Source: Squalus acanthias (lineage: Eukaryota). Taken from it: DNA of 64,000 nt. The notes under the pieces are model-generated. The model had not been told where the DNA came from. It was given only the letters and a program-made list of their open reading frames with translations, and did not search any database. Below, in pieces: positions 41,056-52,220 of the stretch. The translations under genes and the position numbers were made by a program. The DNA is taken from NCBI GenBank assembly GCA_030390025.1, contig CM059431.1, forward strand, positions 151,716,001-151,780,000, given 5' to 3'. Numbering within the stretch: the stretch's first letter is position 1; every line of letters begins with the position of its first letter.

Positions 41056-41101
41056 ATGCAGCTTGCGGTTTACATCGTGCTTGTCTCTTTGTGTTTGGAC
41101 A
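41056..41101 (+). CDS. Ecto-ADP-ribosyltransferase (ARTC family), coding exon 1 (signal peptide)
   Basis: acaATG in a good Kozak context reads MQLAVYIVLVSLCLD plus 1 nt, followed by a GTAAGT donor at 41102. The phase-1 end joins the 51355 exon in frame (A+AT = Asn). A tttcag acceptor at 40920 suggests an upstream 5'UTR exon. Confidence 0.8.
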
Positions 41102-41211
41102 GTAAGTATTTTCATTCTGCATTTTGGTCTAAAAGGAAAGTTGCCTCGTAATGTACCCAATTTTCCAAATGTAAATCACGTTCCCCAGGGGCAAAAGAAT
41201 TTGGAGTGGGA

Positions 41212-44200
41212 AGACAGGAACAGGAGGAGGCCATTCAGCCCCTCGATCCTGTTACATAGAAACAGGAGGAGGCCCAATCAACCCCTCGATCCTGTTAAAT
41301 AGGAAGAGGAGGAGGCCATTCAACCCATCGATACTGTTACATAGGAACAGAAGGAGGCCATTCAGCCCCTCGATCCTGTAACATAGTAACAGGAGGAAGA
41401 AATTCAGTCCCTCAACCCAGCTAAACACTAACATGAGGAGGTCGTTCAGTCCCACAACCCTGCTACACAGGAACAGGAGAAATTCAGTCCCTTAATCCTG
41501 CTAGATAGGAACAGAAGAAATTCAGTCACTCAACCCAGCTACACAGGAACAGGAGGAGGGCATTCAGTCCCTCAACCCAGCTACACAGTAAAAGATGAGG
41601 TCATTCAATCCTTCAACCCAGCTAAACAGGAACAGGAGGAGGCCATTCAGTCCCTTAACCCAGCTATACAGTAACAGGAGGAGGCCATTCTGTCCCTCAA
41701 CCCAGCTACACTGTAACAGGAGGAGGCCATTCAGTCCCTCAACCCAGCTACACAGGAACAGGTGGAGGCCATTCAGTCCCTCAACCCAGCTACACAGGAA
41801 CATGAGGAGGACATTCAGCCCCTCAACCCAGCTACACAGTAACAGGAGGAGGTCATTCTGCCCCTCAACCCAGCTACACTGTAACAGGGGAAATTCAGTC
41901 CCTTAATCCAGCTAGATAGGAACAGAAGTAATTCAGTCACTCAACCCTGCTACACAATAAGAGGAGGAGGTCATTCAGCCCCTCAACCCAGCAGCACAGG
42001 AGCAGGAGGAGCTCATTCAGTTCTTGAACGGTGCTACATATTAACAGTGAAAGCCATTCATTCCCTCAACCCTGCTACATGGTAACAGTAGGAGGTCATT
42101 CAGCCCCTGAACCCTGCTACACAGGAACAGAGCAGGTCATTCAGCCCCTCAACGCTGTTACACAGTAAGAGTAGGTCATTCAGCCCCTCAACCTAGCTAC
42201 ACAGGAACAGGAGGAGTCCATTCCTTACCTCAACCCAGTTAAACAGTAACAGGAGGAGGTCATTCAGCACCTCAACCCAGCTACACAGTAACAGGAGGAG
42301 GCGATTCAACACCTCAACCAATCTACACAGTATTAGGAGGAGGTCATTCAGCCCCTCAACTCTGCTACATAAGAACAGAAGGTTTCCATTCAGCCCCTCA
42401 ACAAAGCTACACAGTAGCAGGAGGAGGTCATTCAGCTCCTCAGCCCTGCTACATAGGAACAGGAGCAGTTCATTCAGCCCCTCAGCCCTGCTACAGAGGA
42501 ACAGGAGCAGTTCATTCAGCTCCTCAACCCTGCTACAGAGGAACAGGAGCAGGTCATTCAGCCCCTCAACCCTGCTACATAGGAACAGGAGGAGGTCATT
42601 CAGTCCCTCAACCCAGCTACATAGTAACAGGAGGAAGATCATTCTGTCATCAAACCAGCTACACATGAACAGAAAGAGTTCATTCAGTCCCTCAAACCTG
42701 CTACTCAGTAACAGGAGGAGGTCATTCTGACCCACAACCCAGCTACACAGTAACAGGAGGAGGTCATTCAGCCCCTCAACCCTGCTACATCGGAACAGGA
42801 GGAGGTCATTCAGTCCCTCAACCCTGCTACATAGGAACAGGAGGAGGGCATTCTGTACATCCACCCTACTAGACAGCAACAGGAGGAGGTCATTCTGACC
42901 CTCAACCCTGCTATATTTTAACAGCAGGAGGGCATTCTGTACATACACCCTACTAGACAGCAACAGGAGGAGGTCATTCAGACCCTCAACCCTGCTATAC
43001 GGTAACAGCAGGAGGGCATTCTGTACATCCACCCTATACACGGTAACAGGAGGAGGTCATTCAGACCCCTAACCCTGGTACACGGGAACAGAAGGTGGTC
43101 ATTCAGCCCCTCAACCGTGCTACTTAGGAACAGAGGAGTTCAATCAGTCCCTCAAACCTGCTACACGGTAACATGAGGAGGTCATTCAGCCACTCAACCC
43201 TGCTACATAGGAAAATGAGCAGGTCATTCTACCCCTCAACCCAGTTACACAGGAAAAGGAGGAGACAATTCCATACCTCAACCCAGTTAAGCACACAGGA
43301 GGAGGTCATTCAGCACCTCAACCCTGCTACACAGTAACAGGAGGAGGTCAATCAGCCCCTCAACCCAGCTATACAGTAACAGGAGGAGGCGATTCAGCCC
43401 CTCAACGTGCTACATAGGAACAGAAGTTTTCCATTCAGCCCCTCAACAAAGCTACACAGTAGCAGGAGAAGGTAATTAACCCCTCAATCCTGCTACATAG
43501 GAACAGGAGCAGTTCATTCAGGCCCTCAGCCCTGCTGCATAGGAAAAGGAGCAGTTCATTCAGCCCCTCAGCCCTGCTACATAGGAACAGGAGCAGGTCA
43601 TTCAGCCCCTCAGCCCTGCTACATAGGAACAGGAGCAGGTCATTCAGCCTCTCAACTCTGCTACATAGGAACAGGTGCAGGTCATTCAGCCTCTCAACCC
43701 TGCTACATAGGAACAGAAGAAATTTAGTCCGCGAACCCACCTAGATAGGAACAGAAGAAATTCAGCCCCTCAACCCTGCTCCACAGTAACAGGATGACGT
43801 CATTCAGGCCCTGAACCCTGCTACATAGGAATAGAAGAAATTCAGTCCCACAACCCTGCTAGATAGGAACAGAAAAATTCAGACCCGCAAACCAGCTACT
43901 CAGTAATATGAGGAAGCCATTCAGCCCCTCAACCCTGCAACATCGGAACAGGAGCAGGTCATTCAGTCCCTCAACCCAGCTACACATGAACAGGAGAAGC
44001 TATTGAGCACCTCAGCCCTACTACACGGTAACAGGAGAGGTCATTCAGCCCTTCAACCCTGCTACATAGGAACAGGAGGAGGTCATTCAGCCCCTCAACC
44101 CCGCTAAACAGTAACAGGATTAGATTATTCAAATCTCAACCCCGCTAAACAGTAACAGGAGGAGGTCATTCAGACCCTCAACCGTGCTACATAGTAAAAG

Positions 44201-44660
44201 AGGAAGTCATTCAGTGACTCAAACCTGCTACACGGTAAGAGGGGTAATCTATTTAGCCCCTGATCCTTGCTACGCAGGAACAGAGGAGGTCATTCAGTCC
44301 CTCAACCCTGCTCCACAGTAACAGGAGGAGGTTATTCAGCCTCTCAATCCTGCTACACTGTATCAGGAGGAGATTATTCAATTCCTCAATCCTGCTACGC
44401 AGGAACAGGAGGAGGTCATTCAGCCCCTCAACCCTGCTACACAGTAAAAGGAGGCGGCCATTCAGCCCCTCAACCCTGCTACATTGGAACAGGAGGAGAT
44501 TATTCAAATCTCAACCCTACTACACCGTAACAGGAGGCGGTCATTCAGACCCTCAACACTGCTACATAGGAACAGGAGGAGGTCATTCAGTCTCACAACC
44601 GTGCTACATAGGAACAGGAGGAGGTCATTCAGCCCCTCAACCCTGCTACATAGAAACAGG
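41212..44660. repeat. 42-bp satellite, about 3.4 kb, in the ART intron
   Basis: AGGAACAGGAGGAGGCCATTCAGTCCCTCAACCCAGCTACAC units. Confidence 0.95.
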
Positions 44661-44719
44661 CTGTTGGAAAGTTGGCCTGCCTAACATAATTCAACCCATA
44701 ACGTCTCCACTGCCTGCTT

Positions 44720-50300: not shown

Positions 50301-50301
50301 C

Positions 50302-51272
50302 CTGACCCAATCATCTTCAGCTGCTTCATCAATGACCTTCCCTCCAACATAAGGTCAGAAATGGGGATGTTCGCTGATGACTGAAGTTGTTCAGCGCCAT
50401 TCACAACTCCTCAGATAATGAAGCAGTCCATCCCCGCATGCAACAAGACCTTGACGACGTTCAGGCTTGCGTTGATGAGTGGCAAGTAACATTCGCGCCA
50501 CAGAATTGCCAGGCAATGACGATGTCCAACAAGCGAGAGTCTAACCACCTCCCCTTGATATTCAACGGCATTACCATTGCCGAATTCCCCACCATCAACA
50601 TCCTGGGGGTCACCATTAACCAGAAACTTAGCTGGGCCTGCCACATAAATACTGTGACAGCAAGAGCAGGTCAGAGGCTATGTATTCTGCGTCGAGTGTC
50701 TCATCTCCTGACTCCCCAATGCCTTTCCAACATCTACAAGGCACAAGTAAGGAGTGTGATGGAATACTCTCCACTTGCCTGGATGAGTGCAGCTGCAACA
50801 ACACTCAGGAAGCTCAACACCATCCAGGACAAAGCAGCCCGTTTGATTGGCAACCCATCCACCAACCTAAACATTCACTCCCTCCACCACTGGCGTACCG
50901 TGGCTGCAGTATGTACCATCTACAAGATGCACTGCAGCAACTCGCCAAGGCTTCTTCGGCAGCACCTCCCAAACACGCGACCTCTGCCACATAGAAGGAC
51001 AAGGGCAGCAGGCGCATGGGAACACCACCACCTCCAAGTTCCCCTCCAAGTCACACACCATCCTGACTTGGAAGTATGTCGCCGATCATTCATCATCACT
51101 GCGTCAAAATCCTGGAACCCCCTCCCTAACAGCATTGTGGGAGTACCTTCATCACACGGACTGCAGCGGTTCAAGAAGGCGGCTCACCACCACCTTCTCA
51201 AGGGCAACTAGTGATGGGCAATAATTGCTGGCATTGCCAGCGACGCCCACATCTGGCGAACGAATAAAAAAA
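50302..51272 (+). mobile_element. Second-family LINE RT 3' end
   Basis: 274-aa ORF containing IYKAQVRSVMEYSPLAW; ends in GAATAAAAAAA. Confidence 0.88.
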
Positions 51273-51354
51273 ACAGTTACGGGAACTTTGTCTATCTTAT
51301 ATACCATCATTTCCTCCATTATGAATTTTCAGAACAACCCGCTTTGTTTCACAG

Positions 51355-52220
51355 ATCGGAGCACTCTAGCTTTTAAAGCTGGAGACCAACCCATCAACTT
51401 GGACATGGCGATGAACTCTGCCGCTTACATCTTCACTCAGACCCCGGCAGCCGACAAGGCGGCGATTGGTTACATCAGAAAGGAATGGGCTGCGAGACGA
51501 GACTTCATTGCAGTGTGGAATAAAGCAAGGAATGCTTTTGGGCCAAATTATAAAATCCCGCGCGGTTTGAGAAGAGAGCACCTGATGGCAATTCACGCTT
51601 ACACTCAAGATTCCAAATTGTACAGTCAGTTTAACACCGCAGTCAGGAAGTACGGTGCAAGTGACGACATCTATAAGAGGATGTTCCACTTCAAAAGCTT
51701 CCATTATCTCCTCTCCGTCGCCCTGGATAAGTTAAAGCGCAAGAGTCATAAGACCTTTAGGGGAGTTAATATTCTATTCAATGCTAGGAAGGGAAGTACA
51801 GTCAGACTGGGACAATTCGCTTCGTCCTCTTTGGAGCAGTACCCAGCGAAAAGATTCATGAACCATAATTCAGCGGAAAACACGCTGTTTATAATAAAGA
51901 CCAGGTTGGGGGTTTCAATCGGGAATTTCTCGGCCATCCCGGATGAAAACGAGGTCCTCATTCCGCCCATTGAGGCTTTTAATGTCAAATTCAAGCCATC
52001 GTGTGTAAAGCAGAATAAGTGGAGCTGGCGCAAAATCACTCTGGGAACGAAAGGGTGCAAGGGCTTCCCAGTGACCGTTAAAAAAGGCCGCAAAGGTAAA
52101 CTGATAGTCAAAAGGGGAAAGGGGAGGTGTCCCAAATTTTGCAAGTGTTTTAAGAGCTGGGAGCTTCCTCAGCTTAACAACAACGACATCTCCTCGCTAA
52201 CCCGCAATGGCAGCTTGTAA
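51355..52220 (+). CDS. Ecto-NAD(+):arginine ADP-ribosyltransferase (ARTC, ART1/ART5-like), catalytic exon
   Basis: Acceptor tttgtttcacag at 51354. Open frame with LDMA, AIHAYT, LYSQFNTAVR, FHFKSFHYLL, TFRG (R), GQFASSS (S), TLF and ENEVLIPP (ExE). The N-terminal part of ORF 51225 is LINE and intron sequence. Confidence 0.92.

Follow-up and report, generated by a model that had tools for sequence, protein, structure and literature searches.

As a family, the vertebrate extracellular ADP-ribosyltransferases (ecto-ARTs, or ARTCs) nest within the bacterial toxin ARTs (PMC3417536); their catalytic domain lies on one exon (PMC1266365). Of the known members, ARTC5 is secreted (PMC9027952, PMC8038981), shed mouse ARTC2.2 switches to soluble targets such as interferon-gamma (IFN-gamma) (PMC7983947), and the ART of chicken heterophils is arginine-specific and promiscuous, an EXE rather than a QXE motif being the mark of arginine specificity (PMC3102197). 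Here, we analyze a gene of this family in a 64,000-nt stretch of the spiny dogfish Squalus acanthias genome (GenBank assembly GCA_030390025.1, contig CM059431.1, positions 151,716,001 to 151,780,000), hereafter the window, to whose numbering all positions refer. We consider it likely that this locus is a transcribed shark ecto-ART gene with two coding exons, producing a secreted, arginine-specific mono-ART that belongs to an anchorless shark subfamily with gene turnover and is probably immune-related, its activity, tissue, and targets being what we infer.

Gene structure and transcript evidence

The gene consists of a small coding exon 1 (41056..41101, + strand), whose 46 nt provide 15 codons plus 1 nt with an ATG and the hydrophobic core of a signal peptide, and a large coding exon 2 (51355..52220, +) encoding the end of the signal peptide, the entire ART domain, a basic hairpin, a cysteine tail, and the stop codon. 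Between them lies a repeat-rich intron of 10,253 nt (41102..51354, +), which starts with a phase-1 GTAAGT donor at 41102. Joining the 46 nt in phase 1 to 51355-52220 yields an open frame of 303 amino acids, in which residues 17-303 are encoded at 51357-52217, so that the catalytic domain is on a single exon, as in ARTCs. This is the protein, including its N terminus, that an earlier sequence-only reading of the window had assembled from a signal exon missed by the listed open reading frames (ORFs), and it withstood scrutiny.

Since an exon of 46 nt could easily be a chance match, we scored the 68,108 open 15-codon frames on both strands against 11 homolog N termini (three of the 14 homologs that offered an anchor, being differently built, were excluded). 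The frame at 41056 scores 36.7 and the runner-up 16.4 (z ~7), the best 10-residue hydropathy in exon 1 is 2.89, and a methionine stands at the matching register in 10 of the 14 anchored homologs. A tblastn search with the Mustelus homolog P0007 (homologs are designated by P numbers) independently recovered the same exon (E 0.007). Judged by sequence, exon 1 is thus not a chance match. A heuristic finds the features of an N-terminal signal peptide, that is, a hydrophobic core in a conserved register and small residues at -3 and -1, with probable cleavage after A21. Two other structures were considered and rejected. A single-exon protein from the in-frame ATG at 51321 has no signal peptide, and in a sequenced contig, exon-1 letters adjoin 51355 (see below); use of an alternative acceptor AG at 51333 would break the frame. 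As a separate observation, the annotated N terminus of P0002 from Carcharodon resembles read-through of the intron acceptor region rather than a small signal exon, and is probably an annotation error of the same kind as that of the ORF list of the window.

The junction itself can be seen in public sequencing data. We aligned contigs of four runs to 51276-52212; the labels of X5 and X15 as possible RNA runs are guesses. Contig 15 of X5 matches 51355-51608 with no differences, starting exactly at 51355, and carries 229 unmatched letters on its 5' side, of which the 30 visible are identical to 41072-41101. This contig shows the splice junction between exon 1 and exon 2 (41101/51355). The length of its 5' part implies ~183 nt of 5' untranslated region before the ATG (40873-41055). 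There may be an upstream noncoding exon, as an acceptor-like site ends near 40920, 30 letters being all that is visible of this 5' part.

Catalytic domain and the cartilaginous-fish clade

Several lines of evidence identify the product of exon 2. It matches the Pfam ART family (PF01129) with 156.9 bits (E 6.5e-46), and rat ART2 is its match among sequences of solved structure (E 2.8e-22). The predicted model has a mean confidence (pLDDT) of 94.6 when built with 61 related sequences (78.9 with 17) and superposes on rat ART2.2 (1gxy) over 215 residues with a Z score of 25.8, a root-mean-square deviation of 2.2, and 33% identity; Foldseek gives E 4.4e-17 against ART2.2. Aligned to rat ART2, the protein displays the R-[ST]-E triad as R151, S172, and E215. 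R151 (51759..51761, +) is arginine in 16/16 rows of the anchorless clade described below and in 45/45 rows of other cartilaginous fishes. S172 opens an STS-type motif, S172-S-S174 (51822..51830, +), assigned from sequence and alignment, and E215 is the catalytic glutamate of E213-N-E215 (51945..51953, +), an EXE motif whose glutamate at -2 is present in 15 of the 16 anchorless rows. The R-S-EXE signature noted earlier is therefore present, and the window protein qualifies as an ARTC by the fold, by the triad, and by a gene layout with a signal exon and one exon for the whole catalytic domain. A search against Rfam returned 0 matches.

The sequence-only reading had taken this protein to be individually divergent, which its relatives contradict. 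All 16 matches of the first homolog search (472 candidates) are cartilaginous-fish ARTs with 42-63% identity. In a quick IQ-TREE phylogeny of 130 rows (rows P0100-P0163 and length outliers excluded, midpoint root, no outgroup, support from the Shimodaira-Hasegawa-like approximate likelihood ratio test, SH-aLRT, only), the window protein lies in a 16-row anchorless clade (SH-aLRT 99) with 15 named shark proteins from 10 genera, 14 of which are named first-search homologs 49-63% identical to it. As a gene, it is an unremarkable representative of a family annotated across numerous sharks, its relatives bearing automatic names in RefSeq. This clade is nested in a 61-row clade (SH-aLRT 99) that includes the chimaera Callorhinchus; names are available for 57 of the 60 rows besides the window protein, every one of them a cartilaginous fish. 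ART5 (P0192), ART2 (P0193, P0194), and ART4 (P0067) fall in the 69-row sister clade, so the window protein does not group with ART5. No true ART1 or ART3 was recognized among the rows, and every named one outside the cartilaginous-fish clade is from a bony vertebrate.

What sets the 61-row clade apart is the lack of four cysteines. Bony-vertebrate ARTCs show four invariant or nearly invariant cysteines in our alignment (in DQYxGC, CxxVYRG, TCxG, and SxxNC). In ART2.2, these canonical cysteines pair into two disulfides. Where bony-vertebrate ARTCs have FDDQYxGC, the window protein has the cysteine-free SAAYIFTQ (residues 37-44; 51417..51440, +). The sequence-only reading had noted that the N-terminal DDxYxGC cysteine after LDMA is missing here; the loss is wider, extending to all four sites and to the 61 cartilaginous-fish rows. 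Cysteine occupies the four sites in 0/14, 0/16, 0/16, and 0/16 anchorless rows and in 0/41, 3/45, 0/45, and 0/43 rows of other cartilaginous fishes, vs. 119/121, 97/128, 116/130, and 125/127 of the remaining rows. The 26 named among the 131 remaining sequences are all bony vertebrates, so that no four-cysteine ART from a shark appears among them, with searches seeded from the shark side; nor did any turn up in a Callorhinchus-seeded search, which returned 3 matches from 819 candidates.

The anchorless tail and alternative readings

Beyond the last catalytic strand, the window protein carries a shark-type C-terminal module (52056..52148, +) composed of C250, a Lys/Arg-rich β-hairpin of predicted strands, and a CPxxCxC motif (C274, C278, C280). 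C250, C274, C278, and C280 are cysteine in 14, 14, 13, and 13 of the 16 anchorless rows, respectively. A β-hairpin follows the last catalytic strand in elasmobranch rows generally, and in 32 of 45 rows of other cartilaginous fishes, it is followed by a GPI-like (glycosylphosphatidylinositol) signal, as scored by a crude rule. When the tails are aligned, the CPxxCxC of the anchorless clade (12/16) occupies the position of the relatives' GPI signal, and none of the 16 rows has a hydrophobic tail. The window protein displays every feature by which we define the anchorless subclade: SAAYIF, GC and CPxxCxC, no hydrophobic tail, and a place in the one clade. Because the motif is shared by 12 of 16 rows, and 9 of these 12 stop exactly three residues past it, the tail represents protein sequence under conservation and not a reading into an intron. 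At the codon where these nine relatives stop, the window has TGG, which opens a 20-residue extension (W284-L303; 52158..52220, +) ending at a stop codon that falls within unit one of a tandem array of 21-bp repeats (52213-54550). This extension is probably read-through of an older, lost stop.

The lack of a hydrophobic GPI signal noted in the sequence-only reading holds up as well. Hydropathy over the last 25 residues peaks at -0.26, vs. ~2-3.5 in anchored rows, and none of the 4,653 open 20-mers from 51901 to 64000 resembles a GPI-like tail (best score 4.0, vs. at least 14.8 for true tails). In the relative P0174, domain and GPI-like tail lie on one 1,927-nt contig, which implies that such a tail is probably encoded on the catalytic exon in the 61-row clade. 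We also considered two origins for the cysteine tail that did not gain support. A truncated GPI signal is suggested by the matching position and by an R(+2) and a G(+5) common to both, but without gaps the alignment scores are negative in 9/9 registers (best -0.47 at +2; -0.76 at 0). C250 could be the extra cysteine of ART5, but by eye it lies one position away, and the alignment has 0/126 counterparts.

A number of observations weigh against the reading of a transcribed gene for an active, secreted enzyme. Concerning transcription, support for the junction comes from a single contig of a single run whose RNA status is guessed, and a processed genomic copy is a remote alternative source of that contig. 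Moreover, an X15 contig (13 differences over 147 nt) continues unspliced across the acceptor; it may represent a paralog, DNA, or pre-mRNA. Since X15 has this unspliced contig, its other contig over 52067-52212 was not used as evidence, and X5 contigs leave 51976-52212 uncovered, a gap that is uninformative. Concerning activity, human ART4 given R-S-EXE stayed inactive, indicating that the motif is insufficient (PMC2576468). Concerning the family copies, codon 70 (window 51516-51518) is a stop in contig 2 of the DNA run X1 (depth 30), a near-identical copy or allele that differs at 2 positions over 143 nt. Finally, the 3' end of the gene is read from DNA and homology, and 52096 holds a phase-1 donor-like site that scores 5/7 against the consensus, on a par with the donor of exon 1.

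This last site opens the way to a further exon, possibly past the window, that would supply a GPI or transmembrane anchor. There is precedent in chicken ART4, where a phase-1 intron precedes coding exon three (PMC2576468), most other cartilaginous-fish rows do bear anchors, and, with a first intron of 10 kb, another exon could sit beyond 64000. However, splicing at 52096 would delete both the second strand of the hairpin, which is conserved, and the CPxxCxC tail, and the next 12 kb are without anchor-like sequence. We regard such an exon as very improbable.

The codon-70 stop raises a different concern, namely that this is a birth-and-death family copy that is decaying, or one whose main activity is NAD glycohydrolysis, with proteins receiving little ADP-ribose. 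Contigs ~90% alike at the same places, found in X1 and once in X5, indicate several family copies, at least two of them in X5. Among these copies, 38 codons differ (counted from 40 of 84 differing sites), 31 nonsynonymously, 6 synonymously, and 1 by a stop; the nonsynonymous share is near the 79% expected at random, and such counts are compatible with relaxed and with positive selection, diversifying selection included. In single species, two or more homologs can also be found on contigs of the same length. The pattern suggests that the genes form a tandem family subject to turnover. The probable loss of the older stop would likewise fit decay. The window copy, however, is open, spliced, and retains its triad, and the X5 contig agrees with its open codon 70. 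Furthermore, EXE rather than QXE favors transfer (PMC3102197), and null alleles do occur in a functional gene, as illustrated by the strain-specific nonsense allele of mouse Art2a (PMC5705771). Decay or loss of transfer is therefore unlikely in our view, and a functional enzyme in a family with turnover remains the preferred reading. Some relatives (P0026, P0163, P0175, P0184, and P0029) are long or contain two or three ART stretches per chain, perhaps because neighboring tandem genes were annotated as one.

Proposed function and comparison with known ARTs

In the mechanism that we propose, exon 1 would direct the protein into the secretory path, from which it would be released, as it has no GPI signal. 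The enzyme would then bind extracellular NAD+ and transfer ADP-ribose to arginines on soluble or surface proteins, the arginine specificity being suggested by the EXE motif. Pairing of the AYIF strand with the longer C-terminal hairpin could replace the disulfide clamp between the N and C termini of bony-vertebrate ARTCs, while two new disulfides among C250, C274, C278, and C280 probably close the tail. The likeliest setting is innate immunity, for which we see roughly even chances, by analogy with the chicken heterophil ART and with shed mouse ARTC2.2, whose action on soluble targets makes such a role plausible.

The protein is also very basic. The mature form has a pI (isoelectric point) of 10.3, a Lys/Arg cluster at residues 258-276, and, counted from the LDMA motif, a net charge of +34, the highest among 14 proteins compared. 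A surface of this kind probably holds the enzyme on polyanions, such as granule and cell-surface proteoglycans, mucus, or microbes. This could be taken further, by supposing that the enzyme leaves the secretory path but works tethered through its cationic hairpin, whether inside granulocyte granules, bound to heparan sulfate, or within mucus, and thus resembles a surface ART without the lipid anchor. Eight basic relatives reach only +16 to +24, and five others (P0004, P0007, P0010, P0011, and P0013) are neutral or acidic, with net charges of 0 to -8, and form a sub-branch of their own (SH-aLRT 99), which indicates that the anchorless form needs no such charge. Hence, we see tethering as a possible but tentative refinement of the secreted reading. 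The presence of this sub-branch beside strongly basic paralogs of the same species or genus suggests two functional classes of anchorless shark ART.

A broader scenario, which we put forward as speculation of doubtful standing, is that cartilaginous fishes keep an ancestral, disulfide-free ecto-ART core to which bony vertebrates added the four cysteines. In sharks, the GPI signal would then have become a cationic tail closed by disulfides, giving rise to fast-turnover, secreted ADP-ribosylating immune effectors that possibly act on microbes or cytokines. In a tree without an outgroup, loss of the cysteines in sharks and gain in bony vertebrates are indistinguishable.

As for the rest of the window, the claim that this is its only intact host gene stands for the 66 of 139 listed long ORFs that were scanned, 8 of which match retroelement domains and 1 a broken seven-transmembrane (7TM) receptor; genes made of small exons are beyond the reach of such a scan. 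Among the matches listed, tblastn with 16 homologs found no second ART copy in the window. The receptor is a single-exon, rhodopsin-family G-protein-coupled receptor at ~16255-15318 (-) with an early stop and a frameshift (7tm_1, E 1.2e-06), presumably resembling the expanded GPR139-like receptors of sharks. Intron 1 contains a 42-bp tandem array (41214-44660, ~83 copies) and a reverse-transcriptase fragment (48619-49056, -). The 21-bp unit found at the end of the gene also occurs far away, at 5371-5786, where no ART sequence adjoins it, and a 1.6-kb repeat-rich block is duplicated with 88% identity (18732-20301 and 35365-37024).

The interest of this locus may lie at the level of the clade: an ecto-ART lineage without the four cysteines that are near-universal in bony-vertebrate ARTCs, and one that has switched among GPI-like, transmembrane, and soluble cysteine-tail endings. 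The literature searched, with subscription papers and supplements outside its scope, contains no description of shark or ray ecto-ARTs or of the clade-wide cysteine pattern, which bears on the origin of vertebrate extracellular NAD signaling and on shark innate immunity. In practical terms, a soluble ARTC without canonical disulfides could be an easier recombinant enzyme for studies of arginine ADP-ribosylation.

The window protein is most similar to the annotated ART-like proteins of other sharks: P0001 from Heterodontus, P0002 from Carcharodon, P0003 and P0004 from Cetorhinus, P0005 and P0006 from Rhincodon, P0007 from Mustelus, and P0008-P0011 from Scyliorhinus. It shares with them 55-63% identity, the register of the signal exon, SAAYIFTQ, the absence of an anchor, mostly CPxxCxC, and R-S-EXE, with the exception of P0001, which has QXE. 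It differs from them by its higher charge, its 20-residue extension, and an extra cysteine, C232, found in 2/15 rows. The automatic names that some of these proteins bear ("GPI-linked ... 1-like," as in "GPI-linked ART1-like," and "ART5-like") mislabel them, as they fit neither their tails nor the tree.

Other cartilaginous-fish ARTs, from rays, skates, Heptranchias, Heterodontus (P0018), Chiloscyllium (P0022, P0174), and Callorhinchus (P0036, P0084), share the 61-row clade and the lack of canonical cysteines, and the elasmobranch rows also share the C-terminal hairpin. They differ by their GPI-like or transmembrane endings and lack C250, C274, and C278. Five of these 45 rows (P0025, P0032, P0033, P0034, and P0045) end in an apparent transmembrane segment, in some cases with a short cytosolic tail, an ending not listed for mammalian ARTC1-5 in the literature consulted (PMC9027952).

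Outside cartilaginous fishes, the best structural match to the window model is rodent ARTC2.2 (PDB 1gxy, 1og3, and 1og4), which differs in being GPI-anchored and protease-shed, with four cysteines and no cysteine tail. The ART of chicken heterophils is released from granules; no row of our tree was identified by that name. Mammalian ARTC5 is secreted, like the proposed form of the window protein, but ART5 (P0192) has DDxYxxC and belongs to the bony-vertebrate clade, a placement implying that its anchor was lost independently of that of the shark subclade.

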